Notes under the pieces: model-generated
Databases searched by the model: none
The model's input: only the letters and a program-made list of their open reading frames with translations
Told to the model about the DNA's origin: nothing
NCBI GenBank assembly: GCA_041741055.1
Contig: JBGSKU010000278.1
Coordinates: forward strand, 1 to 62,379
Length of the DNA: 62,379 nucleotides
Source of the DNA: Hyphomonas sp.
GTDB taxonomy: Bacteria > Pseudomonadota > Alphaproteobacteria > Caulobacterales > Hyphomonadaceae
Reading direction: 5' to 3'
Translations under genes and position numbers: made by a program
Shown here: positions 3,976-47,776 of the stretch, piece by piece
Position numbering within the stretch: the first letter of the stretch is position 1
How the letters are laid out: the number at the start of each line of letters is the position of its first letter

Positions 3976-4004
3976 GCCCATCCTGCTCGCCTTCCTGCCC
4001 CCGT

Positions 4005-4086
4005 TGATCCGCTTCTGGACCCGGGGTGGACCGGGTTGACCCACCCTTGGACCCCGCTGAACCGGGTATGACCTAGGGTTTGACCC
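4005..4086. repeat. Helically phased array of 8 TGRNCC-like hexamers
   Basis: TGATCC 4005, TGGACC 4016, TGGACC 4027, TGACCC 4037, TGGACC 4048, TGAACC 4058, TGACCT 4069, TGACCC 4081. Spacings are 11, 11, 10, 11, 10, 11, 12. Confidence 0.7.
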
Positions 4087-24147: not shown

Positions 24148-24197
24148 TCCACGTCCGGGACCTGAGCAGTCAAAAAAAGCAAAAAAGGGAGCCTTCG

Positions 24198-25493: not shown

Positions 25494-25505
25494 AGGAGCC
25501 GAAAA

Positions 25506-25913
25506 TTGATTGTCAGAGATCTTGCAAAAGAAATGCTCACCGAACGCCGCGTTGACAGCGACGGGTGGTCTTCCGTCCGTCTGCTGCTGAAAAATGACGG
25601 TATGGGGTTCTCGTTTCACATCACCACGATCGATGCAGGCGCGGAGCTGAAAATGCACTACCGAAACCATCTGGAGAGCGTCTTCTGTATGGAAGGCACA
25701 GGCTCGATCGAGGACCTTGGTACGGGTGAGCGCCATCAAATTCGTCCAGGGGTGATGTATGCCCTCAACAAAAATGACCTGCATATCCTGCGGGCCGACG
25801 CAGGCGGTCCGATGCTGATGGCCTGCGTCTTCAATCCTCCCGTCACCGGTAAGGAAGTACACGGCGCAGATGGCGCTTATCCCGCCGACACTGAAATGCC
25901 GGTACCGGTATGA
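25506..25913 (+). CDS. ectC: Ectoine synthase
   Basis: TTG start with GAAGGAG RBS; [42 protein letters not shown]. Confidence 0.95.
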
Positions 25914-25924
25914 GGGAGGCGCGC

Positions 25925-26869
25925 ATGATGACTGACGTTATTGAAGACCTGTACCCCTCCCGGCAAAAGCCGAAAGCCGAATGGCTGGATCGCCGTGATC
26001 CCGTTGTGCGCGGTCTGCCAGGGGCGACGCCGCCGATCGACCTGGCAATGATTGAGGCGTTTGCAAAGGACGGGTTTGTGGTTCTGGAGGATGTCTTCAC
26101 GCCGCTGGAGGTGAAAGCGCTGCTGGAAGAATCAGAAGCCCTTCGCCGCCGGAAGGACCTCTTGCCCGAAAGCCGGATCTCCGAGCCCGGAATGGGCGGC
26201 GCTGACGCGGTCCGCTCGGTATTCGCGCCACATCGTCAGTCTGCTGTCTTTGGGCGTCTGGCTGCCGATGAGAGATTGTCGGGGCTCGCAAAGTTCATTC
26301 TCGGAGACGAGGTTTACATCCACCAGTCACGGATCAACTACAAGCCGGCCTTCCGTGGGAAGGACTTCTATTGGCACTCGGATTTCGAAACCTGGCACAC
26401 AGAGGACGGCATGCCGCGCATGCGTGCGTTGTCGATGTCGGTCATGTTGAACGATAACCATCCACAAGCTGGTCCCACCATGTTCATTCCGGGTAGTCAC
26501 ATGAAATATGTGACCTGCATTGGCGAAACGCCGGACGAGCATTATCGCCAGTCGCTGAAAAAGCAGGATTATGGTATTCCGGATCCGGCCAGTCTTTCGA
26601 AACTTGCCGCCTCAGGCGGTATTGCAGCCCCCGCGCCGAAGGCGGGCTCGGTGGTCATCTTCGACTGCAACACGATGCATGGCTCGAACAGCAACATCAC
26701 GCCGTTTGAGCGGACCAATGCTTTCTTGGTGTTCAATGCATGGAGCAATCGACTTCAGGCGCCGTTTGCAGGCACGCGTGCGCGTCCTGAATTCATTGCC
26801 CACCGCGATGTGAGCGGCCCGCTGAAACTGCTGGAGACGATGCCTCCGCTGTCGCTGGGAGGGCGATAA
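25925..26869 (+). CDS. ectD: Ectoine hydroxylase
   Basis: DLYPSR; EctD signature FYWHSDFETWHTEDGMP; FDCNTMHGS; RBS GGGAGG. Confidence 0.95.
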   Translation: MMTDVIEDLYPSRQKPKAEWLDRRDPVVRGLPGATPPIDLAMIEAFAKDGFVVLEDVFTPLEVKALLEESEALRRRKDLLPESRISEPGMGGADAVRSVFAPHRQSAVFGRLAADERLSGLAKFILGDEVYIHQSRINYKPAFRGKDFYWHSDFETWHTEDGMPRMRALSMSVMLNDNHPQAGPTMFIPGSHMKYVTCIGETPDEHYRQSLKKQDYGIPDPASLSKLAASGGIAAPAPKAGSVVIFDCNTMHGSNSNITPFERTNAFLVFNAWSNRLQAPFAGTRARPEFIAHRDVSGPLKLLETMPPLSLGGR

Positions 26870-26870
26870 C

Positions 26871-28319
26871 ATGAAGCGCACCGTCGAAAAGATCGGCGGC
26901 ACGTCGATTTCCAACACGAAGGCTATATTGGACAACGTGTTGATCGGCGGCCGAACGGGCGAAGATCTCTACAATCGCATCTTTGTAGTCTCCGCGTATT
27001 CGGGAATGACGGACCGCTTGCTGGAGCACAAGAAATCGGGCGAACCCGGCGTGTTCGGTTTGTTTGCCGGTGCAGGCAACAAATGGGCATGGACGGAAGC
27101 GCTTTCTGCAGTTGCGGTTGCGATGCAGGAAAAAAACGCGGAGATATTCGGCGGCACGGGCGAGCAGGCAACGGCAGACAATTTCGTCCGTGAGCGGATT
27201 GAGGATGTGAGAAACTGCCTCATCGATCTGCATCGTCTGTGCTCCTACGGACAGTTCCGGATGGATGAAAATCTGGCAACTGTGAAAGAAGTCCTGTCTT
27301 CTCTGGGCGAAGCACACTCGGCCTTCAACACCGCGTTGTTGTTGCAGGCGACGGGCGTCAATGCGCGCAGCGTGGATTTGACCGGTTGGCGCGATGAGCG
27401 GGCGCTCTCGCTGCAGGATCGTTTCGCCGATGCATTGAGCGGATTGGATCTGTCGCAGGAGATCCCGATTGTTACGGGATATGCAAGTTGCCCTGGCGGT
27501 CTCGTTAGCCAGTTCGGGAGAGGTTATACGGAAGTGACTTTTGCCCGTCTGGCGGCATGGGCCGAAGCCGACGAAGCGATTATTCACAAGGAATTCCATC
27601 TTTCGAGCGCCGACCCGCGCATCGTGGGTGGCGACAAGGTGCGCAAGATCGGCTCCACCAACTTCGATGTGGCAGATCAGCTGTCAAACATGGGCATGGA
27701 GGCCGTTCATCCGAAGGCCGCCAAGATCCTCCGCCAGGCGGGCATTTCGTTGCGTGTCAAGAATACATTTGATCCGGCTGATGCAGGAACGATGATCCAG
27801 GCGGACTATGCACCTGAAAAGCCGCGCGCAGACATCATCACGGGCTTGAGGGGCGTTTTCGCGCTTGAGGTTTTTGACCAGGATATGGTGGGCGAAAAAG
27901 GATACGACGCAGCTGTGCTGGAGGCGCTGGCGCGTCATTCGATCCGCATCGTATCGAAGTGTTCGAACGCCAATACGATCACGCACTATGTGGAAGGCTC
28001 CCGAAAAGCGCTGAAGCGCGCAACGGCTCATATCGAGCAAGCCTTGCCGGGCGCTTCGGTTTCGATCAGCCGGGTCGCCATCGTGTCGGTGATCGGGGCG
28101 GACATTGACGTGCCGGGCATCACCGCAATCGCATTGTCTGCGCTTCATGCGGCGGGCGTGCCGATCACCGGGCTTCACCAGGTGTCACGCAAGACCGACA
28201 TACAGGTGGTTATCGACGAGCCGGACTTCGACAAGGCGATCTGTGCGTTGCACGCAGCGTTGGTGGAAAGCGATGGTTCATCTGCCGAACGTGAAGAGCG
28301 ATTGCGCCCGGCTGCATGA
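26871..28319 (+). CDS. ask: Ectoine-associated aspartate kinase (ask_ect)
   Basis: VEKIGGTS, FVVSAYSGMTD.LLEHKK, RGYTEVTF, IHKEFHLSSADP, VADQLSNMGMEAVHP. Confidence 0.93.
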   Translation: MKRTVEKIGGTSISNTKAILDNVLIGGRTGEDLYNRIFVVSAYSGMTDRLLEHKKSGEPGVFGLFAGAGNKWAWTEALSAVAVAMQEKNAEIFGGTGEQATADNFVRERIEDVRNCLIDLHRLCSYGQFRMDENLATVKEVLSSLGEAHSAFNTALLLQATGVNARSVDLTGWRDERALSLQDRFADALSGLDLSQEIPIVTGYASCPGGLVSQFGRGYTEVTFARLAAWAEADEAIIHKEFHLSSADPRIVGGDKVRKIGSTNFDVADQLSNMGMEAVHPKAAKILRQAGISLRVKNTFDPADAGTMIQADYAPEKPRADIITGLRGVFALEVFDQDMVGEKGYDAAVLEALARHSIRIVSKCSNANTITHYVEGSRKALKRATAHIEQALPGASVSISRVAIVSVIGADIDVPGITAIALSALHAAGVPITGLHQVSRKTDIQVVIDEPDFDKAICALHAALVESDGSSAEREERLRPAA

Positions 28320-32719: not shown

Positions 32720-35611
32720 CTAATGCGGTTTTCCGGTTATTGCGCGTCCGGAACACACGTCGCGATTCGCGACAGGCCATTCGGACTTCAACAGCTGATC
32801 CGTCGTTATCTGAAGCGGGGTGAAGTAGCGGCTCCGGGCGCCCAATAGATGTGTGCAGGCATCGGCAGTAAGTGTCTCCCAAGATTCGGTCAGACGCGCG
32901 ATGTCCCAGATCCGGACCTTGCCGTCGTCGCTCGCCAGAACGACCTGCCGGCCATCAGCAGAGAATGTTGCGCTGCGCACATTGCTTCCGAAGCTCGACA
33001 GGGTCCGCAAAAGGCGCCCGTTGTTGGCATCCCAGATGTTGGCTGTTTCGTCGAGATTGGCCGTCGCAATTCGTGTTCCATCCGGCGAAAACTGGACGCC
33101 GGAAACCCGTCCTCTGAAGCCGCCGAGCGAGAGCAGAACTTCGCCGGTCCGCGCGTCCCAAACTCGAGCCGTGCCGTCATCGCTGCCAGTCACAATGCGG
33201 GTGCCGTCGGGCGAATAGGCTGCCGCTCCGAGTCCGCCGAGATGCCCTTCGAGAGCAGAATTGATCTGGCTGCCGGTTACGGAGTCGAAAATCCGAGCGG
33301 TTCGGTCCTGGCCCGCGGTCACAACGTGCGTGCCGTCCGGCGAAAATTCGGCGCCGCGTACCTGATCGGAGTTGCCCTCAAGGTTTGCCAATAGCGCCCC
33401 GGTTTCAGCATCCCAGACCTTCGCGGTCTTGTCCTTGCTGGCGGTCACGATGCGGTCGCCCTGCCGCGAATAAGACGCGCTGTTCACCGCTGCAGCATGA
33501 CCATTGAGCTCAGCGATCACTTTGTCTTGCCGCCAATCCCAGATCTTGCTGGTGCCGTCTTCGCCGGCCGTGGCAACACGGCTCGCATCTGGAGAGAATG
33601 CGACGCCCGAGACGCCGCCTTTGTGCTTGGCAAGCGTGGCAACGCGTTGTTGGGTCGCTTTTTCCCACACCGATACGGTTCCATCTTGCACCGCGGTGAC
33701 AAGATAGGCGCCATCGCGCGACATCTCCGCGAAAGCAACCTGGTCGCCGCCGGCCTCGATTGTCGTGAGAAGTCTTCCGCGACGATCCCAGATCTTCGCC
33801 GAATAGTCCCCGCTAGCTGTTATGATCTTGTCGCCATCCGGAGAAAACGAGCCGGCACGGAGACGATCTTCGTGTCCGCGCAATGTGCGCTCCAGCGCGC
33901 CCGTCCGGGTATTCCAGAGCCTTGCGGTGGTGTCGTCGCTGATGGTTAGCAGCCAGCTTCCATCGGGCGAAAACCTGGCGTCCCGAACAGCTTGCGCATG
34001 GCCTTCAAGCCGGAACTTTTCCCTGCCGGTGATGCCGTCCCAAAGCCGCGCGCTGCCATCGCCGCTCGCCGTCGCGATCGTTTGCCCGTCAGGCGAAAAG
34101 TTCGCCGTCAGTACGCTGTCGAGGTGCCCCGTCAGCGGCGGCACCAATGGTCGTCCGGCTTTTGTGCTCCAGAGCCGGGCAGTCTGGTCGAAACTGGCTG
34201 TCACGATCCTTTCGCCGCTCGGCGAGAAACTGGCGCCGTAAATGGCACCATCGTGACCTTTCAATGTGTGAACGATCGTTCCGCTTGCTGTGTTCCAAAT
34301 CCGAGCCATTCCGTCGTCATGTGCCGTGAGGATCAAATCACCATCCGGCGAAAACGCAGCGGTCCAGACCGGGCCGGCATGTGCGCTTAATTCATGAATT
34401 TCTTCACCGGTCGCGGCTTGCCAGATTCGGGCGGTGCCATCGCGCGCGGCGGTCAGGACAAGGGTCCCATCGGGTGAAAACTGGATTGTCTGAAGCCCGT
34501 CGGTGTGTTTCTCGAACCGTTCAAGCGGCTCAAATGTGACCAGGTCCCAGATGATCGCGGTATGGTCCCTGCTTGCGGTTGCAAGGCGGGTCCCGTCGGC
34601 CGAAAAGGCAACAGCGCTCACGCGTGCGGAATGTGCATCCAGCGTATGGATCAACTCGCCCGACGCAGTGTTCCAGATTTTTGCCGTGCCGTCTTCGCTT
34701 GCCGTGACAGCGGTCAATCCGTCCGGCGAAAAGGCTGCAGCATATACCGGACCTTCGTGCATCAATGGCGCAAGCGTCTCGCCTGCCTCGAACATCGCGG
34801 CGCCCAGAGCGGCGTGATAGTCATTTTCGTGCTTTTCCGACAATTGCATGCCCGCCAAGGCGTAACGAGCTGATCCGAGTGTGTCTTCGTTTTCAAGACT
34901 CTGCCAGGCGCGTTCGGCAAAGAAAGCGGCGAGGTTGTCATGGGCCGTGCGGGCATTCTGGCGCGCTTGCAGTCCCATGAAAACCGCGGTCGCTGTCAGC
35001 ACGGCGAACACGGCGCTGAGTGTTGTCAGTCCAAGGAGCAATCGGCGCTGTCTCGCTTCCTCACGCCGGCGGTCGCGCTGCCATAGATCGTCAAAGTCTA
35101 CGTCGAGTAGTCCGGCTGCAAGCCGCGCGATCGCGCGGTCCTTACCATCCTTTCGAATGTCCAACCCCAGGGGTTCGATGGGCAGGTCGAGTTCGTCGTC
35201 CGGATTTTGTCGCCGCCTTAAAGCGGCCGGGAAGCATTCTGATTCCGGATCGCCGGAGTTCGGAACTCCGTCGATGATGAAAGCAAACACCTTGCCATCC
35301 CGGCCGCGGCGCCGGAACCGTTCAATCTCGGAAGCCACCCACTGAGACTGCGCAGAGCGCGGCGAGCAGATCACAATCATGCTCTCGGATTCGTCGATTG
35401 ATCGTTCGACGATTTCCGCGATGTTGGCCGCCGCAGCCATCTCTTCGTCGTCACGGAAGAAGCGGCCCAGCCGCTGGCCTTCAGCGAGGTCCCCTGACGT
35501 TTCGGCCGGAACGCGGTAACCCTCCAGCCAGCCATGCAGGCGTTTCCCCCAGATCTTGTCCTGTTGGGAATAGCTGATGAATGCGCGATAGGTTTTCGCC
35601 GTGTCGGTCAT
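32720..35611 (-). CDS. TIR domain - single TM helix - WD40 repeat protein
   Basis: TIR motifs YRAFISYSQQD, FFRDDEE, IVICSPRSAQSQWVASEI; TM LLLGLTTLSAVFAVLTATAVFMGL; 15 WD40 repeats (GH...FSPDG...TAS.D.TA.IW). Confidence 0.9.
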   Translation of the reverse strand: MTDTAKTYRAFISYSQQDKIWGKRLHGWLEGYRVPAETSGDLAEGQRLGRFFRDDEEMAAAANIAEIVERSIDESESMIVICSPRSAQSQWVASEIERFRRRGRDGKVFAFIIDGVPNSGDPESECFPAALRRRQNPDDELDLPIEPLGLDIRKDGKDRAIARLAAGLLDVDFDDLWQRDRRREEARQRRLLLGLTTLSAVFAVLTATAVFMGLQARQNARTAHDNLAAFFAERAWQSLENEDTLGSARYALAGMQLSEKHENDYHAALGAAMFEAGETLAPLMHEGPVYAAAFSPDGLTAVTASEDGTAKIWNTASGELIHTLDAHSARVSAVAFSADGTRLATASRDHTAIIWDLVTFEPLERFEKHTDGLQTIQFSPDGTLVLTAARDGTARIWQAATGEEIHELSAHAGPVWTAAFSPDGDLILTAHDDGMARIWNTASGTIVHTLKGHDGAIYGASFSPSGERIVTASFDQTARLWSTKAGRPLVPPLTGHLDSVLTANFSPDGQTIATASGDGSARLWDGITGREKFRLEGHAQAVRDARFSPDGSWLLTISDDTTARLWNTRTGALERTLRGHEDRLRAGSFSPDGDKIITASGDYSAKIWDRRGRLLTTIEAGGDQVAFAEMSRDGAYLVTAVQDGTVSVWEKATQQRVATLAKHKGGVSGVAFSPDASRVATAGEDGTSKIWDWRQDKVIAELNGHAAAVNSASYSRQGDRIVTASKDKTAKVWDAETGALLANLEGNSDQVRGAEFSPDGTHVVTAGQDRTARIFDSVTGSQINSALEGHLGGLGAAAYSPDGTRIVTGSDDGTARVWDARTGEVLLSLGGFRGRVSGVQFSPDGTRIATANLDETANIWDANNGRLLRTLSSFGSNVRSATFSADGRQVVLASDDGKVRIWDIARLTESWETLTADACTHLLGARSRYFTPLQITTDQLLKSEWPVANRDVCSGRAITGKPH

Positions 35612-35843
35612 GCCGCTGCACCTTACGCCCCTTCGTCCCAGCGTCAGGACATTAGGCTTGCAATCTCCAAAGTCAAAGGCGGGGGGCAAGTGCCTCGCCG
35701 GTTGTCCGCCGTGAGGAAGAACGAACTCCAGTCGGACAATTGCACTTTGGCTTCGCAGACGGTAACCGGGCGATTCGGGGCCGGAACAGTCAAGCGCTGG
35801 CGACCGGTCGACGAAACTCAAGCAACCTGTGATGTGATTTACA

Positions 35844-37979
35844 ATGCGTTTGCCCGTTCCACTGCTTTCGGTCGCTTTGCTGGCGGTCGCTGTCCCGTTC
35901 GCAGGATCGGAGCTGGCGCACGCTCAGGACGTTTCCGATGGTGCGGGCGAAGCGCGCTACGGTACCGTGATCGTGAATGCACGGCGGCGGGATGAGCCGA
36001 TAAACACCGTGCCGGAAACCCTTACGGTCTTTCAGCGCGACGATATCGAGCGCATGGGCATTACCAGCCTGAGGGACGTTGCCGATCTGACGCCCAACTT
36101 CACGCTGCTCGACAATTACAGGCCAGGACTGGAGCGCTTCCAGATCCGTGGTCTGATCACGCCTCAGGTGGGCGAGCCGCCTTTGGCGGTCCTTGTTGAC
36201 GGGATTACGGCGCCCGACGCGGAATTCATCAACCAGAACCTGTTCGACATCGCGCGGATCGAGGTGCTTCGCGGGCCTCAGGGGGCGATCTATGGACGCA
36301 GCGCCGTAGGCGGCGCGATCAATATCGTCACGGAAGCGCCGGCAGATACATTTCAGGCCAGCCTTCGCGGCACGCTTGCGAATGGTTCGACCCACGAAGT
36401 GTCGGCCACCGTGTCAGGCCCACTTGCTTCAGAAAAGGCCCGCTTCCGGCTCGGGGGCTACTACAACGAGAGTGACGGCTTTGTCGAAAATGCCTTCCTG
36501 GATGAGCCGGCCGACGCGTCACGTCAGCACGGTGTTGTCGGTCAGGTGAATTTCGACCTGGCCGCTGCAACGCGCCTGATGGCGCGTGCACAATATAGTC
36601 ACTCAGAAGATGGTATCGGATACTACAACGCGGTCGGCACGACGCGTGAATCCATTGAGAGCTTCGCGTTGCCCGTTTCGCAAAACGTGCTTGGCGACAG
36701 CGAGCGCCAGATCTTCCAGTTCAGCACCAAACTCGAACATGACTTCGAGGATGCAACCCTGTCTTTGGCAGGCGGATACTCCAAAGCGGATAACAATGGG
36801 ATCGCCGATGGCGATCTAATCGCCGCTCCAAGCGACGGCGTGACGTTCTTCCCGAACTGGCAGCAGGCCATCGATGCCTATGAGGCATGGACCATTGAAG
36901 CGCGGTTGACCTCACGTGGGGAAGGCAGGTTCAACTGGTCTCTTGGTAGCTTCTTTCAGGACAAGAGCCGCGTCAGCTCGTTCAGTGTGTATGACGACCC
37001 GACCGGAACGGACCGTCTTACCAGGTCAGACCTTTCGCCCGCCTTGCTGCTGTTTGCAATCCAGGACGACGGCGGCAGCCGCGCCTGGGCCGTCTCCGCA
37101 GAAGCGAGCTACGCAATCACGGATAGGCTGACGTTGAGCCTGGCCGGCCGGTTTGACGAGGACCACCGCCGGTCAGTCGATCCCCGCGATGTCGAAACGA
37201 CAGGCGCGAAAGCGGCTTTCCGCGAGTTCCAGCCGAAAGTATCGGTATCCTATCAGGCTGCCGACGACGTGCTTGTGTACGGAGGGTATTCGCGCGGATT
37301 CCGCAGCGGCGGCTTCAATGAATACAGCCCGGTTGTTTCGCGGCTTTTCAAGGCCGAAATTACGGACAGCTACGAACTGGGTGTGAAAGCTTCGGTTCTC
37401 GATGGACATCTGATGTTTGATGCGGCCGTTTTCCGGAACGAGCAGGACGACGCGCAGTTGACGCGGTTCAATCCTGACAGCTTCACATTGGAAAATGTCG
37501 GGATTGATCGCGTGCGGTCGCAAGGCGCCGAGCTGGAACTCAGCTTTCACCCGACTGATACGCTAGCTGTTAGGCTGGCGGCAGGAATCGTCGATTCCGA
37601 AATCCAGGCGTTCGCGCAGGATCCAACTCTTGTTGGCAAGAAAATGCCCTACGTTGCGGACTATAATACCGCCTTGTCATTCGAGTATGAAAAGCCGCTG
37701 AAAGGTGATCTGTTCCTGCTGGGCAACATCGCCTTCCGGACGGTCGGGCCTCGAAGCTTTGCGCTGGATTTTCCTGAACTGCGCTCTGCGCCGCATCAGT
37801 TTGTCGATCTCCGGCTGGGACTGCGTGGTTCTGATTGGAGCATTGTGGCCTTTGCCGACAACTTGTTTGATGAACGTCAGCCTGAGGACATTTTCGGGAT
37901 GTTCAATGGCGCCGTGGAGCTTGCCCGACAGCCCAACAAGCCGCGCCGCTACGGCGTCGAACTTCGCCGCGACTTCTAG
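35844..37979 (+). CDS. TonB-dependent receptor
   Basis: Signal peptide AHA|Q; TonB box TVIVNARRR; plug RIEVLRGPQGAIYGRSAVGGAINIVT; YSRGFRSGGFN; terminal Phe. Confidence 0.92.
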   Translation: MRLPVPLLSVALLAVAVPFAGSELAHAQDVSDGAGEARYGTVIVNARRRDEPINTVPETLTVFQRDDIERMGITSLRDVADLTPNFTLLDNYRPGLERFQIRGLITPQVGEPPLAVLVDGITAPDAEFINQNLFDIARIEVLRGPQGAIYGRSAVGGAINIVTEAPADTFQASLRGTLANGSTHEVSATVSGPLASEKARFRLGGYYNESDGFVENAFLDEPADASRQHGVVGQVNFDLAAATRLMARAQYSHSEDGIGYYNAVGTTRESIESFALPVSQNVLGDSERQIFQFSTKLEHDFEDATLSLAGGYSKADNNGIADGDLIAAPSDGVTFFPNWQQAIDAYEAWTIEARLTSRGEGRFNWSLGSFFQDKSRVSSFSVYDDPTGTDRLTRSDLSPALLLFAIQDDGGSRAWAVSAEASYAITDRLTLSLAGRFDEDHRRSVDPRDVETTGAKAAFREFQPKVSVSYQAADDVLVYGGYSRGFRSGGFNEYSPVVSRLFKAEITDSYELGVKASVLDGHLMFDAAVFRNEQDDAQLTRFNPDSFTLENVGIDRVRSQGAELELSFHPTDTLAVRLAAGIVDSEIQAFAQDPTLVGKKMPYVADYNTALSFEYEKPLKGDLFLLGNIAFRTVGPRSFALDFPELRSAPHQFVDLRLGLRGSDWSIVAFADNLFDERQPEDIFGMFNGAVELARQPNKPRRYGVELRRDF

Positions 37980-37989
37980 GCGTCGCGGT

Positions 37990-38961
37990 TCAATAGAAGT
38001 AAGATCTGCAGACGTGAAGACGCTTCGAACTGGTGCCGGCCTTGCGATCTCCGAGATTCCATAGGGCGAAATCGATTTCCCGGGCCGTTGTGGCGACGCC
38101 TAGTTTCTCCAGCGCCTGACGCAGGAACTCGCAGGCGACGATGCTGTTGCCGCGAAGCTCCAGTTCGGCGGGGCTTCCCATGCCGAGATCCTCGCCAGCC
38201 TGGATCTGGTGGGAAAGCACGTCGCTGTAGTCAAGCACGCCTTCCGCTTCGAGGACGAAGGGCAGCATGTTGTCGGCAAATACAGTCAGTCGCTCCAGGC
38301 CTTGAACACCAAGCCCGGAGAGGCCCGGTTCTGCCGACGCGATGGCAATGTCCTGCACACATATCTGGGCGCGCTTCAGGAAATACACATCCTCGCCCTC
38401 GTACATGGCCATGTCCCGAAACATCGGCATATTACAAAGCATCGCCACCATGTCGGGCACGCGTTGGCCAGAACAGATCAACAGGTTCTCGTATCGTCCG
38501 TCGAGCAGGTCTTGTGTGAACCGGCCGAGTTCGCGAAGAGCCCGGGTGAACCAGTCGATCAACTGAACAAGTTCCAGTCGTTTCGGCTGTCCCAATAGTT
38601 CGAAGACTATGTCCGGCGTGATGGATTGAAGCATTTGCGAAGACGGAGCGCCGTTTCGGTGAAACCAATCGCGCAGCGCGCTCGCGACCGCATAGTAGCC
38701 ATGTTCGCCTTTGTAAGGCGCGAGGTGTTCAAAGAACCCGGATCCGAAGTTCAGTGCATCAAGCACAAGGAAATAGCCGATCGTTGACTCGGGTTCGCCA
38801 ATGAAATGGTGTGACGTGTGGCGCATTTCCCGAGGCAGGGCAGCGGCAAGTTCACCTGCGAATTCCGAAAGCCGCGATCGGTTGATCTGAACGAGGCGCG
38901 ACTTTTCCGTCACCCGGAAACAACTGGGAAGCGCCCGGCCCAACAGGTCGATATCGCTCAT
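37990..38961 (-). CDS. Queuosine salvage N-glycosylase/hydrolase (DUF2419, Qng1-like)
   Basis: LDALNFGSG, FLKRAQI, LTVFADNMLP, ELELRG, EIDFALW, HVCRSYFY; starts 4 nt after the tgt stop. Confidence 0.85.
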   Translation of the reverse strand: MSDIDLLGRALPSCFRVTEKSRLVQINRSRLSEFAGELAAALPREMRHTSHHFIGEPESTIGYFLVLDALNFGSGFFEHLAPYKGEHGYYAVASALRDWFHRNGAPSSQMLQSITPDIVFELLGQPKRLELVQLIDWFTRALRELGRFTQDLLDGRYENLLICSGQRVPDMVAMLCNMPMFRDMAMYEGEDVYFLKRAQICVQDIAIASAEPGLSGLGVQGLERLTVFADNMLPFVLEAEGVLDYSDVLSHQIQAGEDLGMGSPAELELRGNSIVACEFLRQALEKLGVATTAREIDFALWNLGDRKAGTSSKRLHVCRSYFY

Positions 38962-38965
38962 CGCG

Positions 38966-40240
38966 CTATCCGCCCAGCCATATCCGCCTTGCAGGCTCAA
39001 GAGAGCCGGCCGCAAGACCTGTTCTCACGTCAGCCATCACCCGGTTCATCGTGGCTATATTGTGCGTAGTCAGAAGGATCTGCGCGAGCGTTTCGCGCGC
39101 CTTGAGCAAGTGATGCAGGTAGCTGCGGCTGACCGTTCGGCAGGCTTCGCAAGGACAATCCGGATCGATCGGTGTCACGTCATGCCGGAAGGTCGCGTTG
39201 CGAAGGTTCAGCGCAGGCTCGCGCTTGTGTACGCCGCAATCAGCTGCGATTTGCGCAGGCACGAGTGCCCAGCCGTGGCGCGCGGCGCGAGTCGGCGAGA
39301 CGCAATCGAAGGTGTCGATACCGTAGGGGACGCAGCGAAAGATGTCCTCGATACCGCCGATGCCGAGCAGGTGGACCGGCTTTTCGCAATTCAGCCCCTC
39401 TGCTGCGAATTCGACAACTTCGTACATCTGGGATTTGGAGTTGCCGAGGCTGCCGCCCACTGCATATCCAAAGAACGGCTGTGTGCGGAGGGTTTCGGCC
39501 GCGCGCTTGCGCAGGTCCGGATAGACGCCGCCTTGAGAGATTCCGTAAAGACCTTGCGCACCGGCCGATCCATGGCGCGGCGCATAGTCACCGGCCGGTT
39601 GCAGGTAGCTGACAATGGATCGCTCGGTCCACCGCTGCGTCCGTGCAAGCGAGGCCTCGGTATAGTTGCGGTCCACATGAAAGGGCGTGCACTCGTCGAA
39701 GGTCAGGATAATGTCCGCGCCGAGCTGGCGTTGCACGCCGATTGAGCTTTCCGGGGTCAGCATCACCCGGCTGCCGTCGATGTAGGAGCGGAAGGCGACC
39801 CCTTCTTCGGTGATCCGAAGCACGTCCTTTTTGGGACGCTCCGTCTTGCGCGCGCTCTTGATCTCGTCCGCAACGCCGCCATGCGCAAGCGAGAACACCT
39901 GGAAACCGCCACTGTCCGTCAGGAAGGGGCCATCCCAGCCCGAAAATTTATGCAGGCCGCCATGATCTGCAACGATCTTCGAACCCGGCTGGAGCATCAG
40001 GTGGTAGGTGTTGGACAGGATGATCTGCGTGCCGGTCGACTTCACGGACGACATGGGAACTGCTTTGACGTTCGCCTTGGTGCCGCAGAAAATGAAGGCG
40101 GGGGTTTCGACCACGCCGTGGGGTGTCTGAAGCCGCCCAAGACGTGCCTTGCCATTTGCAGGGCAGGGCGTGGCTTCAAAACGGAACCCGGGAAGTTCCG
40201 GATCTTCCCAGATCGTGGTGGGCGCCTGTTGACGGGTCAT
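38966..40240 (-). CDS. tgt: tRNA-guanine(34) transglycosylase
   Basis: NTYHL, TDSGGFQVFSL, FDEC, QGG, HLLGIG, GIDTFDCVSPTR, Zn site CPCEAC...H, SYLHHL. Confidence 0.95.
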   Translation of the reverse strand: MTRQQAPTTIWEDPELPGFRFEATPCPANGKARLGRLQTPHGVVETPAFIFCGTKANVKAVPMSSVKSTGTQIILSNTYHLMLQPGSKIVADHGGLHKFSGWDGPFLTDSGGFQVFSLAHGGVADEIKSARKTERPKKDVLRITEEGVAFRSYIDGSRVMLTPESSIGVQRQLGADIILTFDECTPFHVDRNYTEASLARTQRWTERSIVSYLQPAGDYAPRHGSAGAQGLYGISQGGVYPDLRKRAAETLRTQPFFGYAVGGSLGNSKSQMYEVVEFAAEGLNCEKPVHLLGIGGIEDIFRCVPYGIDTFDCVSPTRAARHGWALVPAQIAADCGVHKREPALNLRNATFRHDVTPIDPDCPCEACRTVSRSYLHHLLKARETLAQILLTTHNIATMNRVMADVRTGLAAGSLEPARRIWLGG

Positions 40241-41040
40241 GTGCTGGCGTCCTCAGCTGGGGCGACATAATGCGGAGAGTTCCGGAACACGCGGCGCGAG
40301 AGGTACATGAAAGGCGTATCCAGCAGCGCGATGAAAACGCGAGCAGAAAAGGTTCCGAGGATGTAGGTGTAGATCAGCGTATCCCAGGGCACGGGCGTTG
40401 CGGCGAAGATCCGCCAAGCCAGAAGCGAGAAAACCGTGTTGTCGATAAAGGCCGCAGCGATTGCGGAAACATTGTTGCGCAACCATAGGGATCCGCCGCT
40501 GGTCTTGCGCTTGAGGTAGGCGAACAGCCAGACATCGAGATGCTGGCTGATCAGGTAGGAGGTGAGGCCCGCAACCAGCAGTCCAAGCTGCGGCTGGATC
40601 ACCAGTTTGAGCGCACGCTCCGTTTCGGCGGCGAAAGCGTATTCAGGGCCTGAAGTCGCGACATCAACCGGCCGGTATCCAAGCATCAGGATCATGAAAA
40701 CGTTGAAGAGCAGCACGCAGCAAAAGCCGAGCCAGATGATCCGGCGCGCGAGCGCTGAGCCGTAATATTCCGTGACGAGATCAATCGCGAGGTAAGAGCT
40801 TGCAAACAGGATGGTGCCCAGCGCAACCGGATGGGGAAACACCGCGAACTGGACGACCTTGAGAACCTGGATATTGGCGCCGAGAATGGCCACGATCACG
40901 AAGGCAACCAGTCCGTAGATGCCGAAAAGGCGCATCAGTAGAAGCACGCCGCCATACGCGGTCAACAGCATGAACAGCGCAACCACCCCTGGCGGGGCGC
41001 GATTCATGGCCTCGACGAAGATGGTGATGATTTCGTGCAC
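40237..41040 (-). CDS. yhhQ: Queuosine precursor transporter (YhhQ/Vut_1)
   Basis: ANIQVLK, DLVTEYYG, SYLISQHLD, LWLRNNVS, IDNTVF, LDTPFMY; 4-nt overlap with the tgt start. Confidence 0.9.
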   Translation of the reverse strand: MHEIITIFVEAMNRAPPGVVALFMLLTAYGGVLLLMRLFGIYGLVAFVIVAILGANIQVLKVVQFAVFPHPVALGTILFASSYLAIDLVTEYYGSALARRIIWLGFCCVLLFNVFMILMLGYRPVDVATSGPEYAFAAETERALKLVIQPQLGLLVAGLTSYLISQHLDVWLFAYLKRKTSGGSLWLRNNVSAIAAAFIDNTVFSLLAWRIFAATPVPWDTLIYTYILGTFSARVFIALLDTPFMYLSRRVFRNSPHYVAPAEDAST

Positions 41041-41256
41041 AGTGATGGTTTTCTAGGATATTTTCGGGTCTCGGATACCATGGGCCGCGCATTGCGGCTC
41101 ATCCCAACCGGGGTTGTGGCCCATTCGCACGGTCCGGTTATGTCACGCGACAGACGGGGGAGAGCCCTCCTAGTTAAGTTTCGGGCTCATGGCAACTCGG
41201 CCGGCGCAAGGGCAAAGGCGCGCCATTGAGACCTGAAGGCGACCGCAGCGCGGCGC

Positions 41257-41586
41257 TTAGCGGCCGGGGCGACCGTAGAAGCTGCACAGCGTGTCGATCA
41301 GCAAGTGCCCGATGCCCGGCTTGCAGCGGTAGAAGATCGTCTGACCCTCGCGGCGGCTCTCGACGAGACCCGCCGCCCGCAGCTTTGCCAGGTGCTGCGA
41401 TACGGCAGACTGCGATTGGCCAGTCAGCTCGGCCAGCTGGTTGACGGGGCGCTCTTCGTCGCTCAGCGCGCAAAGGATCATCAGCCGCGTTTCACTCGCC
41501 ATCGCCTTCAGAGTGTCGGCAGCTTCCTGGGCGCGGTAGGTCACGCGCTGTAGAGCTTCCGCCTTCTTAAGCTTGGGGTGTGCCAT
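41257..41586 (-). CDS. ArsR/SmtB regulator, BigR/SqrR-like persulfide-sensor type
   Basis: LKAMASETRLMILCAL, QSAVSQHLAKLR..GLV..RREGQTIFY, second Cys in DTLCSFY; lies in an sqr cluster. Confidence 0.85.
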   Translation of the reverse strand: MAHPKLKKAEALQRVTYRAQEAADTLKAMASETRLMILCALSDEERPVNQLAELTGQSQSAVSQHLAKLRAAGLVESRREGQTIFYRCKPGIGHLLIDTLCSFYGRPGR

Positions 41587-44500
41587 GCGTGGTCCCTTCT
41601 GCAGACTGAGTCGCGTCATTCGGTGCCGGAGTAGGCGACGCGTTAGCGGGTGTCCATTCCGGGCCTCTCAAGGCGATATAGATCGCCGGAATGACCAGTA
41701 CAGTCAGCGCCGTTGACGAGGCCAGACCGAACAGCAGCGAAATCGCGAGGCCCTGGAAGATCGGATCGGACAGGATCACCGCCGCGCCGATCATAGCCGC
41801 TAAAGCGGTCAAGAGGATCGGTTTGAACCTGATCGCGCCCGCATCAAGCAGAACTTCCTTCAGCGGCGTGTGATCGTCCGTCCGGTGGCGCACGAAGTCC
41901 ACGAGAAGGATCGAGTTTCGCACGATGATTCCTGCCAATGCGATGAACCCGATCATTGATGTTGCCGTGAACGCAGCGCCAAACAGCCAGTGACCGATCA
42001 TGATGCCGATCAGTGTCAGCGGCACAGGCGTCAGGATGATCAGCGGTACACGGAAGGTGCCGAATTGCGCCACCACAAGAATGTAAATCCCGATCAAGGC
42101 AACGCCGAATGCAAGCCCCATGTCCCGGAACGTCACATAGGTCACTTCCCATTCGCCGTCCCACAACAGGGTCGTGTGGGTTTCGTCTTCGGGTTGGCCG
42201 TACATGCTGATCACGGGCTGGGTGAGCCCCTGGCTGGCCCAGTCATAGGCCTTGATGCGCGATTCGATTTCGAACATGCCGTAAATCGGCGCCTCGAACC
42301 GACCGGCCAGTTCCCCCATCACCATATCCGCGAAATGTCCATCGCGGCGGAATATGGAGAGCGAGCCTGTGTCTTCATGCGTTTCGACCAAAGCTCCCAG
42401 TTCAATCGGCACAACATCCGTTCCGGCGAGCCGGCGCGGGACGGGCGTCGCCGCAATTTGCTGTGTCCAGCTGCGTTCCGATCGTGGCAGGTAAACGCGG
42501 ATATTGAGGGGATCTCGGCCCTCGCCGCGCGGGGATACGCCTGCGGACTGTCCCTCGAAGGCCAGGGCAATCGTATCGAGAATATCCTGCTGCAGCACGC
42601 CGGCATCGGCAGCGCTAGGTTCATCGATGTCAAAGGCCAGCCTCGGCGCGGCCTCGCCCAGAGAGTTATCGACGTCAACGATGAAGTCGGTTTCATTGAA
42701 CATCTGTTCGATGACGGTTGCAGTCTTCCGGCGCGCTTCGGGAGACGGGCCGTAGATTTCTGCCATCAGCGTAGAGATCACAGGCGGACCGGGCGGAACT
42801 TCCACCACCTTCACGCGAGCGCCTTCCGGCAGAGGAACGGCAGTCAGCCGGGCCCGAATATCGAGCGCGATCTCATGGCTTGCGCGCTTGCGTTCCGATT
42901 TTTCCGAGAGATTGACCTGCAGGTCGCCGAGCTCAGGGCTCGAACGCAGGAAGTAGTGACGCACCAGGCCATTGAAGTTGAACGGCGCAGCCGTGCCGGC
43001 ATAGGCCTGCAGGGTGATCACTTCCTCTACGGGGCGGATCGCATCTGCCAGCGCGAACAGGGCCCGTTCGGTGTCTTCAAGCGCTGCGCCTTCCGGAAGA
43101 TCGACAATCACCTGCACTTCGGACTTGTTGTCGAAGGGCAGCAGCTTCACCGGCACAGCGCGCGTGACGAACAGCAGCAGCGACAACAGCGTGGCGACCC
43201 CGACCGCAATCAGGAAAGTCCAGGCATTGCGTTTCGATTCCACGACGGGTGCTGCCACCCGGCGGTAAAAGTCGCTGAGGCGTGTTTCGCCACTGTGCGC
43301 GTTGATGTGCGCCGTCGCGCCGGCGCCGCTGACGATCTTCATCATCAGCCAGGGTGCAATTCCGACCGCAACGAAGAAGGAGAACACCATGGCCGCTGAT
43401 GCGTTCGCCGGAATGGGGGCCATATACGGTCCCATAAGTCCGGACACGAACATCATGGGCAGCAGGGCCGCAATGACGGTCAACGTCGCAATGATGGTTG
43501 GATTGCCGACTTCCGACACCGCCTGGATGGCAGCTTCGGTCCGGCTGCGGCCGTCATTCATCGCCCAGTGACGGGAAATGTTCTCGATGATCACGATGGC
43601 ATCATCGACGAGAATCCCGATGGCGAAGATCAACGCGAACAGGCTGACGCGGTTGATGGTGTAACCCATCATCAGTGAAGCAAACAATGTCAGCAGGATC
43701 GTCGTGGGAATGACGATCAGGGTGACCAGGGCCTCCCGCCATCCAATGCTGAATGCAATCAGGACGACGATGGAAACAGTCGCAAGTCCTAGATGGAACA
43801 GCAGCTCATTGGCCTTGTGGTTGGCCGTCGCGCCATAGTCGCGTGTTACCTCGACATCGATGCCTTCCGGGATCAAGGGACCTTTCAAGGTCTGCAAACG
43901 CTCGAGAACGGCGCTGGAGACAACCACAGCATTCGCCCCGGGCCGTTTGGCGACGGTCACGGTGACAGCAGGGCGCGCTGTGAATCCGTCGCTGGCATTG
44001 GGCTGCATCGTCCAGACGCGCATGTCGGAGTCGGCGCCGGTGACCTTCACGGTTGCAACGTCGCCCACATACACGACTCTGCCGCCAGCTCCCCGGATCT
44101 GGAGTCGTTCCAATTCGTGCACGGCGTTCACGCGGTTACCTGCCTGCACGATCAGGGATTCGCCATCCTGATGCGCGCGCCCGGAAGGCATCGCCGCAGC
44201 TGCGCCCTGGATGCTTTGCACCAGCGTTTGAAGGGAAACGCCCTGCGCCGACAAGGCCTGGATATCCGGTTCAACCCGCAATTCGAGCGGCCGGCCACCA
44301 ATCACTTCCGTGAGGCCGACGTCTTTCACCTTCGTGAGTTCATTGCGCAGTTCGTCAGCCAGCATACCCAGCGTTGTGTCGTTCCACACATCGCCTGTTG
44401 CTTCATCTGGCGACAGCGTCAGCGTGACAATCGGGACGTCGTTGATACCGCGCCCGACAACGAGCGGCATCGGGACGTCATATGGAATCGAGTCCAGGTT

Positions 44501-44857
44501 CGCCCGGATCTTTTCGTGCACCCGCAGGATCGCATTGTCCGCGTCGGTTCCGACATTGAAGCGCGCTGTGACGAGTGCGCCGTCATCGCGCGTCTGAGAG
44601 TAGACATGCTCCACATCCGGAATGGCCATCAGGATGCTCTCGAGCGGCTTGGTGACCTGCTCCACCGCATCGGGCGCTTGCAGTCCCGGGGACGACACCA
44701 TGATGTCGACCATCGGTACGGAGATCTGGGGCTCCTCCTCGCGCGGAATCGTGAGCAGTGCGATCAGGCCGACCGCCAATGCAGCAAGGAGCAACAGCGG
44801 TGTGAGCGGAGAGCGGATGGTGGAGCGCGTGATCCCGCCGGAAAGGTCGGTCTTCAC
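41567..44857 (-). CDS. RND permease (AcrB/AcrD/AcrF superfamily)
   Basis: PREEEPQISVP, GILVDDAIV, VPVKLLPFDNK, RNSILLVDF, RFKPILLT; 1096 aa. Confidence 0.9.
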   Translation of the reverse strand: MKTDLSGGITRSTIRSPLTPLLLLAALAVGLIALLTIPREEEPQISVPMVDIMVSSPGLQAPDAVEQVTKPLESILMAIPDVEHVYSQTRDDGALVTARFNVGTDADNAILRVHEKIRANLDSIPYDVPMPLVVGRGINDVPIVTLTLSPDEATGDVWNDTTLGMLADELRNELTKVKDVGLTEVIGGRPLELRVEPDIQALSAQGVSLQTLVQSIQGAAAAMPSGRAHQDGESLIVQAGNRVNAVHELERLQIRGAGGRVVYVGDVATVKVTGADSDMRVWTMQPNASDGFTARPAVTVTVAKRPGANAVVVSSAVLERLQTLKGPLIPEGIDVEVTRDYGATANHKANELLFHLGLATVSIVVLIAFSIGWREALVTLIVIPTTILLTLFASLMMGYTINRVSLFALIFAIGILVDDAIVIIENISRHWAMNDGRSRTEAAIQAVSEVGNPTIIATLTVIAALLPMMFVSGLMGPYMAPIPANASAAMVFSFFVAVGIAPWLMMKIVSGAGATAHINAHSGETRLSDFYRRVAAPVVESKRNAWTFLIAVGVATLLSLLLFVTRAVPVKLLPFDNKSEVQVIVDLPEGAALEDTERALFALADAIRPVEEVITLQAYAGTAAPFNFNGLVRHYFLRSSPELGDLQVNLSEKSERKRASHEIALDIRARLTAVPLPEGARVKVVEVPPGPPVISTLMAEIYGPSPEARRKTATVIEQMFNETDFIVDVDNSLGEAAPRLAFDIDEPSAADAGVLQQDILDTIALAFEGQSAGVSPRGEGRDPLNIRVYLPRSERSWTQQIAATPVPRRLAGTDVVPIELGALVETHEDTGSLSIFRRDGHFADMVMGELAGRFEAPIYGMFEIESRIKAYDWASQGLTQPVISMYGQPEDETHTTLLWDGEWEVTYVTFRDMGLAFGVALIGIYILVVAQFGTFRVPLIILTPVPLTLIGIMIGHWLFGAAFTATSMIGFIALAGIIVRNSILLVDFVRHRTDDHTPLKEVLLDAGAIRFKPILLTALAAMIGAAVILSDPIFQGLAISLLFGLASSTALTVLVIPAIYIALRGPEWTPANASPTPAPNDATQSAEGTTHGTPQA

Positions 44858-45888
44858 GGGCGGGGTTCCGGCTTTTCGATCTCGTCGCCGGGTCTGAGCC
44901 CCGACAGGATCTCATACTGACCCGTTGTGTCGACCAAAGGTGCAGCCAAGGCCACGGGCGCGTCGATAAAGCGCTCGCCCACCTTCACGCGGACAAAATC
45001 GACACCGAACCTCGTCGAGACATAGTCCGTGGGAATCCTGATCGCCCGGCGTTCGCCCACGGGCGCCAGAACGTCAACGCGCTCACCGAACAGCGCCGTC
45101 AGACCGCCTTCGACCTTGGCGTCCGCGATGACGGATCCTTGCTGCAATTCGGGATATATTTTGATGATGGTCGCAGTGCGCACTTCGTCTGATCGCGCCG
45201 GCAAACGAAGCGTAATCAGTCCGCCTTCCTTAATATTAGGGGCGTGGCGTTCGGGCAGGGCGAGCCGGACGACGCCGTCAACGGTGGCGAATGTGGCCAG
45301 TACATCACCGGGCGAGACAACCGATCCCCGAACGACCTTCACGTCCGTCACATGGGCGTCTGCGGGCGCCAGGATACGCCCTTCGGACTGCTGGGCAACC
45401 AACGCGCGCCGTTCCGCCTGAGCAGATGCCAGGCTGCGTTTCAGCACTTCGAAATTGGTTTTCTCTTCATCCAGCCGCGCGCGCGGATAAAACCCTTGTG
45501 CGAGCAGACCCTCGTTGCGGGCGATGTCACTTTCCATCTGTTTCACTTGGGAGTTCAGCCCCTCAACACGCGAGCTCAGCGATGACAATTGCGGTGCGAT
45601 CGTGTCGTCCGTGACAACTGCAACGACGTCGCCGGCTTTTACAATCTGCCCTTCGACGGCATTGAGCTGGGTGACGACGCCCTGCAGACGCGAGCGGGCG
45701 GTTGCCGTGTCGCCTGCTTCGATCCGCGCAATCACGGGACGGTAGTCGATAACGATCGACTCTTCCACTTTCAGGGGCTGGGCCGCCGCGGCCGCTGGAA
45801 ACGCGATCAGAAGCGCCAGCAAGAGTCCTGAACTCCGCTTGTGGCGGGCGCTGGCCTCAGGTTGCGAGAAAGGTGGTTGGGTTCTCAT
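44854..45888 (-). CDS. RND periplasmic adaptor subunit
   Basis: ATG 45888 with GGAG RBS; signal/TM segment, lipoyl halves (EGQIVKAGD, ILAPAD) flanking a coiled coil; EILSGLRPGD. Confidence 0.85.
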   Translation of the reverse strand: MRTQPPFSQPEASARHKRSSGLLLALLIAFPAAAAAQPLKVEESIVIDYRPVIARIEAGDTATARSRLQGVVTQLNAVEGQIVKAGDVVAVVTDDTIAPQLSSLSSRVEGLNSQVKQMESDIARNEGLLAQGFYPRARLDEEKTNFEVLKRSLASAQAERRALVAQQSEGRILAPADAHVTDVKVVRGSVVSPGDVLATFATVDGVVRLALPERHAPNIKEGGLITLRLPARSDEVRTATIIKIYPELQQGSVIADAKVEGGLTALFGERVDVLAPVGERRAIRIPTDYVSTRFGVDFVRVKVGERFIDAPVALAAPLVDTTGQYEILSGLRPGDEIEKPEPRP

Positions 45889-45938
45889 ATTCACTCCATC
45901 ATCCGGCGACGGCTGCATGCCCCTGCAATCGTTCGGAT

Positions 45939-45990
45939 TTGACATTTCCGACATCCGTAAGCATACGTATATTATAAAATTCTAAAATAC
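45939..45990. promoter_or_regulatory. Divergent promoter region of the sqr/RND module
   Basis: TTGACA at 45939 followed by a very AT-rich block (TATATTATAAAATTCTAAAATA) in a GC-rich genome; likely promoter and ArsR site. Confidence 0.45.
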
Positions 45991-46023
45991 CAGACCTTAT
46001 GAGGCAGCAAGGGAGAAAACGAA

Positions 46024-47298
46024 ATGGCAAAGATCGTGGTACTTGGGGCCGGTCTCGGCGGTGTGCTGGCTGCCTACGAAATCCGCAAGGCAGTGCGCCG
46101 TGAAGACGACGTCGTGGTGATCAATGAAAACAGCTTTTACCAATTCCTGCCGTCAAATCCGTGGGTGCTGGTGGGCTGGCGTGACCGCGAGGATATCGTC
46201 GTCGATCTCGAAGGACCTATGAAGAAGCGCAAGATCGGGATGATCGTTGGAAAAGCGTCGAAGGTTCAGCCCGAACAGAAAACCGTGCTGCTCTCTGACG
46301 GATCTGCAGTTTCCTATGACTACCTGGTAATCGCAACCGGCCCCGAGCTGGCCTTCGACGAGATTGAGGGATTGGGCCCCAACGGTCATACACAGTCCGT
46401 GTGCCATATCGATCATGCGACCCAGGCCAACATCAGGTTTGAAGAGTTCTGCAAGGATCCCGGTCCGATCATTGTCGGAGCGGTCCAGGGCGCGTCGTGC
46501 TACGGCCCGGCCTACGAAACACTGATGATTATCGAAACCGAGCTGCGCAAGCGCAAGATTCGCGACCAGGTTCCGATGACCTATGTGACCTCGGAGCCCT
46601 ATATCGGACATCTGGGTCTTGATGGGGTCGGCGACACCAAAAGCCTGCTCGAAAGCGAAATGCGTGAGCGCCACATCAAGTGGATCACCAACGCGCGCGT
46701 GCTGAAAGCCGAGGCCGGAAAGATGACCGTCGAAGAGGTCAACGAGGACGGCAGCGTGAAACAGGTTCACGAGCTGCCGATGAAATTCTCGATGATGCTG
46801 CCGGCCTTCCGCGGCGTCGGCGCTGTGTACGGCGTCGAAGGTCTGACCAATCCGCGCGGGTTCATTCTGGTCGACAAGCATCAACGCAATCCGAAGTATC
46901 CTGAAATATTCGGGATCGGAGTTTGCATCGCCATTCCGCCAGTCGGCAAAACGCCAGTGCCAGTTGGCGTGCCAAAGACCGGCTTCATGATCGAGTCGAT
47001 GGTGACGGCGACAGCTGGCAATCTCGGACAGATTCTGCGCGGCGAAGCGCCAACTCATGAGGCGACATGGAACGCCATATGCCTGGCAGACTTTGGTGAC
47101 AAAGGCGTCGCCTTCGTGGCGCAGCCCCAGATTCCGCCGCGCAATGTGAATTGGTCCGGTTCGGGCGGCTGGGTCCACACGGCCAAGATCGGTTTTGAGC
47201 GATACTTCCTCGGCAAAGTGAAGTCCGGGAAATCCGAGACGTTTTACGAGAACGCCGTGCTCGGCCTGATCAAGACCCACAAGATAAAGGCAAGTTGA
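46024..47298 (+). CDS. sqr: Sulfide:quinone oxidoreductase (SqrA/type I-like)
   Basis: VLGAGLGG, PSNPW, three conserved Cys (SVCH, GASCYGPAYE, NAICLADFG), VPKTGFMIE, IPPRN. Confidence 0.9.
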   Translation: MAKIVVLGAGLGGVLAAYEIRKAVRREDDVVVINENSFYQFLPSNPWVLVGWRDREDIVVDLEGPMKKRKIGMIVGKASKVQPEQKTVLLSDGSAVSYDYLVIATGPELAFDEIEGLGPNGHTQSVCHIDHATQANIRFEEFCKDPGPIIVGAVQGASCYGPAYETLMIIETELRKRKIRDQVPMTYVTSEPYIGHLGLDGVGDTKSLLESEMRERHIKWITNARVLKAEAGKMTVEEVNEDGSVKQVHELPMKFSMMLPAFRGVGAVYGVEGLTNPRGFILVDKHQRNPKYPEIFGIGVCIAIPPVGKTPVPVGVPKTGFMIESMVTATAGNLGQILRGEAPTHEATWNAICLADFGDKGVAFVAQPQIPPRNVNWSGSGGWVHTAKIGFERYFLGKVKSGKSETFYENAVLGLIKTHKIKAS

Positions 47299-47317
47299 AC
47301 CCGAAAGGCTTCTGGAT

Positions 47318-47776
47318 ATGTCTGCCAACGAACAAATGATTTATTGCGTCGCATGCGGCGCGACCAACCGGGTGGGTGCGGGCAAGTCACTGACTGCAGC
47401 CAAATGCGGCCGGTGCAGCAAGCCGCTGGCCACGCCGGAACCTGTTGACGTGAACTCGGAACAGTTCGCGGGTCTACAGGCGAAGGATACAGGCGCGTAT
47501 GTGCTGGACGTCTGGGCGCCGTGGTGCGGCCCCTGCCGGATGATGGCGCCTCACTTCGAAGCGGCCGCAGCCAGGTTCAGCGCCGATGTTCGCTTCTTTA
47601 AACTGAATACGGACGCCAACCAGGCTGCCGCCGGCCTTCTCCAGATCCGGGGCGTGCCCACGCTCATTGCGCGCAAGGGCGGGCGTGTCGTCGCGCACGA
47701 GGCTGGCGCGAAAACCGGCGTGGCCCTCGACAACTGGATCCAGACTTCGCTCAAAGTAACGTCCAAAGCCGATTGA
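47318..47776 (+). CDS. trxC: Thioredoxin 2 with N-terminal Zn finger
   Basis: CVACGATNR...CGRC plus WAPWCGPC active site. Confidence 0.88.
   Translation: MSANEQMIYCVACGATNRVGAGKSLTAAKCGRCSKPLATPEPVDVNSEQFAGLQAKDTGAYVLDVWAPWCGPCRMMAPHFEAAAARFSADVRFFKLNTDANQAAAGLLQIRGVPTLIARKGGRVVAHEAGAKTGVALDNWIQTSLKVTSKAD

Follow-up and report, generated by a model that had tools for sequence, protein, structure and literature searches.

A conserved four-gene cassette in Hyphomonas pairs queuosine salvage genes with a predicted TonB-dependent importer

The stretch of Hyphomonas DNA analyzed here (GenBank assembly GCA_041741055.1, contig JBGSKU010000278.1, 62,379 nucleotides [nt]; hereafter the window) carries a TonB-dependent receptor gene next to qng1, tgt, and yhhQ. 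The probable reading of this four-gene cassette is a complete route for scavenging queuosine (Q) or queuine in bacteria that lack the de novo Q genes tested, with TonB-powered uptake followed by YhhQ import, Qng1 hydrolysis, and insertion by TGT. The receptor, with TonB, would bring Q or queuine into the periplasm, a step argued from linkage, co-occurrence, and phylogeny. YhhQ, whose family function is known and whose substrate here is inferred, would move the same compounds across the inner membrane. Cytoplasmic Qng1, which has its catalytic residues, would then split Q into queuine and ribose, with a predicted preference for the nucleoside; a TGT of the GGSLG type would exchange G34 for queuine in tRNA-Asp, -Asn, -His, and -Tyr, a predicted specificity consistent with its motif and with the missing genes. 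Since such a TGT would put queuine in directly, QueA and QueG would be dispensable.

The receptor gene (35844-37979, + strand; 711 amino acids; PF07715 and PF00593) converges on an operon of three genes on the - strand: yhhQ, encoding the inner-membrane queuosine-precursor transporter also known as QPTR (40237-41040; 267 amino acids; PF02592 and TIGR00697 above cut-off), tgt (38966-40240; 424 amino acids; PF01702 and TIGR00430, 403 bits with a cut-off of 307), and qng1 (DUF2419; 37990-38961; 323 amino acids; PF10343 Q_salvage, 153 bits). Re-reading of the sequence confirmed the tight packing described in the first-pass annotation: yhhQ and tgt overlap by 4 nt (ATGA), a gap of 4 nt separates tgt from qng1, and the stop codons of the convergent receptor and qng1 genes lie 10 nt apart. 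The TTG start at 39015 given for qng1 by a program's open reading frame list falls within tgt, and the ATG at 38961 was taken instead. All four genes are intact in the source genome, which is 69% complete and has Hyphomonas as its nearest named relatives; because the entire locus also sits on single contigs in two further sequencing runs, the cassette is not an assembly chimera. Among the 20 tRNAs found in this genome are tRNA-Asn, -Asp, and -His with GUN anticodons.

The cassette is a conserved unit. The same convergent layout recurs in four more Hyphomonadaceae genomes, with receptors 93% (G032), 75% (G028), about 75-76% (G939), and 51% (G877, from a second genus) identical to that of the window; identities for receptor, Qng1, TGT, and YhhQ are 76, 66, 90, and 82% in G939 and 51, 47, 68, and 56% in G877. 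Flanking DNA is as in the window in G032 and G028 and unrelated in G939 and G877, where only the four cassette genes are common within 19.5 kb. A blastn comparison of the window with the 19.5-kb G939 locus aligns positions 35828-41202 and nothing else (73.9% over 5394 nt), and the G877 locus matches at the level of the four proteins only. The unit is, in short, mobile-looking. Presence and absence follow the same line: of 61 relatives, three have the receptor (at least 75% identity) and these are also the three with Qng1, and across genomes of the family Qng1 (4/251) and the receptor (4/146) mark the identical four carriers.

Outside the family, one sphingomonad-like contig (L021; receptor 55% identical) carries yhhQ-tgt-qng1, an AIPR gene, and the receptor, with all four cassette genes on one strand; L027 and L028 are close kin whose contigs end upstream, and L013 and L014, being the same DNA as two counted Hyphomonadaceae loci, were not counted twice. 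The neighborhood analysis suggested by the first-pass annotation finds receptor homologs beside qng1, tgt, and yhhQ down to about 50% identity, so the refuting outcome named there did not occur. The convergent orientation, regarded there as weakening the link, does not truly weaken it, given the layout kept at 51% identity in G877 and the single-strand arrangement of L021. Beyond these lineages the searches were negative: no sphingomonad whole genome was a carrier (Qng1 in 1/301 family genomes, of another type, and in 0/3, 0/21, and 0/141 in three genera); Qng1 was absent from the plasmids and viral contigs searched; other alphaproteobacterial Qng1s (10/400 class genomes; 25-33% identity where matched) did not lie beside this receptor in the 11 regions read; and a phylum scan for the receptor gave 7/400 distant matches, none in the Q-linked clade described below.

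Carriage of the cassette coincides with missing de novo Q genes among those tested. queA is present in 51 of 53 Hyphomonas genomes that are at least 90% complete, and the two without it are the carriers G032 and G939. The lack of que genes first noted within the window extends to the whole source genome, which gave no match to QueA, QueF, or QueG (QueH, QueD, and QueE were not searched for), and near-complete carriers lack the same three. The QueC profile found one weak match of 42 residues in the source genome, where tgt is single copy. QueF and QueG were each absent from 4/4 carriers tested and present in control genomes; carriers tested had no second tgt beyond the cassette copy, and QueC was not found in G032. 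The gene that abuts the native tgt in G443 is kept in G032, G939, and G028, with no tgt beside it. This comparison covers Hyphomonadaceae carriers and controls rather than the sphingomonad lineage, and since the carriers are kin the coincidence should be read as a pattern and does not amount to a statistical test. Recurrence and de novo loss nonetheless lend support to the earlier proposal that the receptor would supply the outer-membrane step, transport itself being predicted.

The operon enzymes are consistent with direct use of queuine. TGT keeps the catalytic and zinc motifs (TDSGG, FDEC, DxFDCV, and CxCxxC), and its pocket loop reads GGSLG where that of Z. mobilis reads GGLAVG, making it one residue shorter; GGSLG is found in 6/6 cassette TGTs and GGLAVG in the 2 non-cassette TGTs compared. 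In the available part of PMC11570991, an opened pocket, GG[LS][AS]G, is tied to queuine use, and the GGSLG of Anaplasma TGT is modeled as fitting queuine; the same part of that source presents Bartonella as a case where gene content by itself can mislead. Hosts of the cassette TGT lack QueA and QueG, as expected of a queuine-inserting type (with QueH again outside the search), and TGT is predicted to insert queuine.

Qng1 aligns with its Sphaerobacter thermophilus counterpart over residues 10-323 (E value 1e-34), reaches the PF10343 cut-off, has the helix-hairpin-helix (HhH) motif Asp and Lys together with the base-binding residues, and keeps D69, N72, K199, I203, D207, D231, D298, W302, H53, Y93, and the C-terminal Y323. 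The pocket for the 5'-phosphate is another matter. Contacts listed for the S. thermophilus enzyme in the accessible part of PMC9881137 (R80, Y232, K233, and Q306) align to E, N, M, and D, and F75 aligns to S. Near homologs have N at 232 in 56/56 and M at 233 in 53/56, and Y232/K233 are replaced also in 84 more distant homologs (all 140 aligned sequences); replacement in near and distant homologs alike points to a large Qng1 subfamily without this pair. These bacterial sequences (P0121-P0240 and P0261-P0281) share the signature NFGSG ... FADN. Because the phosphate-pocket residues are substituted, the Q nucleoside, not queuosine 5'-monophosphate, is the likely substrate, and Qng1 is predicted to be a nucleoside-preferring Q-nucleoside hydrolase, on the strength of a sequence alignment in which a nearby basic residue could substitute for those lost. 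Of the two substrates originally proposed, queuosine stands, with the catalytic residues kept, and the monophosphate becomes unlikely. Set beside S. thermophilus Qng1 and human QNG1 (PDB 7u07 and 7uk3; PMC9881137, in part), the window enzyme is alike in catalytic residues but lacks the phosphate pocket. No signal peptide is visible in Qng1, so that the nucleoside would have to cross both membranes.

Qng1 relatives also occur in other settings. Genomes G592 (L121) and G1080 (L141) have a Qng1 of another type; since they keep QueA and a GGLAVG-type TGT, the enzyme there may serve recycling or catabolism. Small-genome alphaproteobacteria (G539, G693, and G804; L108, L109, L111, and L118-L120) have two Qng1-family matches each, and at L126 (G753) yhhQ adjoins a distant Qng1.

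The receptor itself was modeled as a plug and 22 long barrel strands, with a predicted local distance difference test (pLDDT) score of 85. Read by eye, it has a hydrophobic N-terminus ending in AHA that resembles a signal peptide, a TonB-box-like TVIVNA, and a C-terminal Phe. The nearest solved folds are the siderophore receptors FyuA and FoxA (14-19% identity), a fold search and Atlas returned the generic receptor fold only, and the protein scores below every named-substrate NCBIfam cut-off (siderophore, vitamin B12, and pyrroloquinoline quinone [PQQ]; best 168 versus 223.5 bits, among the best 25 of 29 families).

Family context is more instructive. Neighbors were annotated at 31 loci, among them 28 of 80 metagenome loci (all those of at least about 35% identity plus one). 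Among the family loci not belonging to the Q-linked group (25), none had Q genes and 24 had DUF917 (S-Me-THD) and/or hydantoinase/oxoprolinase, often accompanied by genes for an NCS1 permease and an Lrp regulator. In the trees, all Q-linked receptors fall into a single clade within this DUF917/hydantoinase family (FastTree support 0.99, 129 rows; Shimodaira-Hasegawa-like approximate likelihood ratio test [SH-aLRT] 100 in an IQ-TREE quick search, 39 rows), with a sister group that includes L020, a locus of DUF917 context. For proteins without visible context, a receptor was paired with a Qng1/YhhQ homolog when their longest contigs had identical lengths. Such partners were found for 14/34 clade members (14/20 on contigs of at least 7 kb) versus 0/49 outside, where the look-up of cluster members mainly inside the clade favors matches there. 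Pairwise distances of receptor and Qng1 correlate (rho 0.875, 15 pairs), as do those of 9 length-inferred pairs (rho 0.81; as high in 34/5000 permutations). The clade has dozens of substitutions of its own, including the acidic A97E in the plug and L344D in a barrel strand. Position 344 probably faces the lumen, as it is in register with the invariant polar residues E352 and R354, and E97 and D344 could be candidate binders of the Q side-chain amine. A single recruitment from the DUF917/hydantoinase/NCS1 family likely gave rise to the receptor, which would then have been long retained and re-tuned; with one origin, the carriers are not independent.

The uncharacterized uptake and catabolism clusters of this family are recurrent (L020, L022-L026, L030, L031, L033, L036-L049, and L101), combining a TonB receptor with Lrp, an NCS1 permease, hydantoinase/oxoprolinase, and DUF917, or with hydantoinase A/B, a major facilitator superfamily (MFS) transporter, and cyclophilin. 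Few papers mention DUF917. At L092, a yhhQ-like gene and a distant (32%) TonB receptor from outside this family lie about 3.5 kb apart.

Nesting within a catabolic family is also what would be expected if the receptor had kept its ancestral DUF917/hydantoinase/NCS1-family substrate and joined the Q operon once by chance, leaving Q to enter through porins. This account, which we judge unlikely, can draw as well on the many plug and barrel residues that are invariant family-wide, on the separate strand of the receptor gene, and on the variable spacing in sphingomonads. It fits poorly with linkage kept to about 50% identity, at three or more genomic sites and through one rearrangement, with qng1 accompanying the receptor in every searched genome where the receptor turned up, with the clade-specific substitutions, and with the source genome (69% complete), which gave no homolog of the ancestral partners DUF917, hydantoinase, or NCS1. 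The NCS1-family nucleobase permease and ring-hydrolase-like genes of the ancestral clusters could instead mean that the family binds a class of N-heterocycles, and that the receptor broadly takes up modified nucleosides or purine-like products of tRNA breakdown, mainly for nutrition and with Q as one of several; this is quite unlikely, since the cassette brings no catabolic genes along and the common DNA holds exactly four genes. A metal or siderophore receptor that provides iron or, for the zinc enzyme TGT, zinc would suit the FyuA and FoxA folds and database labels of "iron complex receptor," but is highly improbable with fold matches that are generic, no siderophore or B12 model at cut-off among those best 25 families, and family contexts that are organic-substrate clusters.

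Several observations weigh against TonB-dependent uptake of Q or queuine. Transport by the receptor, like its ligand, is a prediction. Porins admit solutes up to about 600 Da, and Q and queuine are small enough to pass. Their m/z values are 410 and 278 (PMC9881137, in the part available). The window receptor lies on the strand opposite to the Q operon, and no motif common to the receptor and yhhQ upstream regions was evident. The L020 receptor is 54% identical to that of the window, as similar as some clade members are, but its neighbors form a DUF917 cluster. The three Q genes were seen at just one metagenome locus (L021) out of 80, most others being distant or cut off; 6/20 clade members on contigs of at least 7 kb went unmatched; and two contigs with Qng1 and YhhQ (48,429 and 27,123 nt) had no matching receptor among the matches listed. 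Receptor and qng1 are separated by one gene in L021 and, by accession numbers, by about 10 and about 19 genes in two further sphingomonad records, where linkage is therefore loose; the L021 AIPR gene (3507-5252), which is of lower GC content, and these intervening genes suggest an insertion hotspot. The plug stretch holding E97 is of low confidence in the structure model, and GGSLG is not a literal instance of GG[LS][AS]G, the published motif, while Cys158 is kept. With one origin, finally, long co-inheritance is not fully separable from function.

Upstream of yhhQ, a leader (41041-41200, - strand) may contain a promoter and/or a cis-regulatory RNA. Across the four Hyphomonas carriers, where alone it was seen (not in G877 or L021), it is conserved at 65-81%, versus 49-50% at four-fold sites of yhhQ, and it holds a candidate GNRA-capped hairpin. 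Rfam gave no match in the window and none in the leader at E values up to 10, the preQ1 riboswitch included. Folding was no better than that of shuffles (z -0.82, -0.05, and 0.96); a hand-drawn structure had 91.7% of cells paired but was equaled by 117/500 shuffles, with covariation not above controls. A sequence-only model recovered only its four inputs across 24 sources, the leader pattern was absent from viral contigs and gave one chance-level match in plasmids, and a promoter and terminator scan stayed at chance level.

Other genes of the window include one for a WD40-repeat protein with 14 repeats (32720-35821, - strand), oriented divergently from the receptor gene and found also in G032 and G028 and absent at the G939 and G877 loci, with an N-terminus that we take to resemble TIR. 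An ectoine operon (23578-28319, + strand) encodes an acetyltransferase, aminotransferase, ectoine synthase, hydroxylase, and aspartokinase; on the yhhQ side of the cassette (41257-47776) lie an ArsR regulator, an AcrB-family pump accompanied by what looks like a fusion protein, and a flavin oxidoreductase paired with a thioredoxin-like gene.

On their own, yhhQ, tgt, and qng1 make up a pathway of a familiar kind, direct queuine salvage. The C. trachomatis (Chlamydia) version, reported in the consulted portion of PMC11570991, is alike in having QPTR/YhhQ, a sole tgt with a shortened glycine-rich pocket, and no queA or queG; unlike it, the hosts here are free-living (from groundwater, soil, and biofilm sequencing runs), their cassette adds Qng1 and a TonB receptor, and its distribution is patchy within a de novo-positive genus. 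The receptor is probably a new transporter specificity. None of the Q-precursor transporters in the part of PMC11130926 seen (QPTR, QueT/QrtT, UPS, HlyIII, and MFS) is TonB-dependent, although they too were found by clustering with tgt or qng1 in genomes that need salvage. The available main text of that paper has neither "TonB" nor "outer membrane"; its Table S2 (51 families), outside this check, may bear on novelty. PMC6593275, within the part seen, gives only QueT/QrtT/YhhQ for Q. In keeping with the first-pass annotation, no TonB-dependent queuosine importer was found in the searchable literature, subscription journals excepted. PqqU (PDB 9c4o) and BtuB (1nqg) share the plug-barrel fold (template modeling [TM] score 0.68-0.74) and the scavenging of scarce cofactors, but differ in sequence (16% identity, model cut-offs not reached) and in predicted ligand. 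The most ambitious version of the proposal holds that this would be the first Q-specific TonB importer, a re-tuned catabolic-cluster receptor in a mobile cassette that turns free-living producers into scavengers with a nucleoside-preferring Qng1 subfamily; we lean slightly toward it.

The characterized bacterial Q-precursor transporters found in the literature act at the cytoplasmic membrane, and passage of nanomolar Q through the outer membrane of Gram-negative Q auxotrophs is unaddressed there. The candidate importer comes with a natural negative control in the L020-type sister receptor, and it may offer the first clue to the ligands of a receptor family that lacks annotation; the large Qng1 subfamily flagged here may differ in substrate from the solved enzymes. 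Q auxotrophy would not be confined to host-dependent bacteria, and its arrival through cassette gain in free-living groundwater and soil bacteria would make Q an environmental micronutrient worth active uptake.

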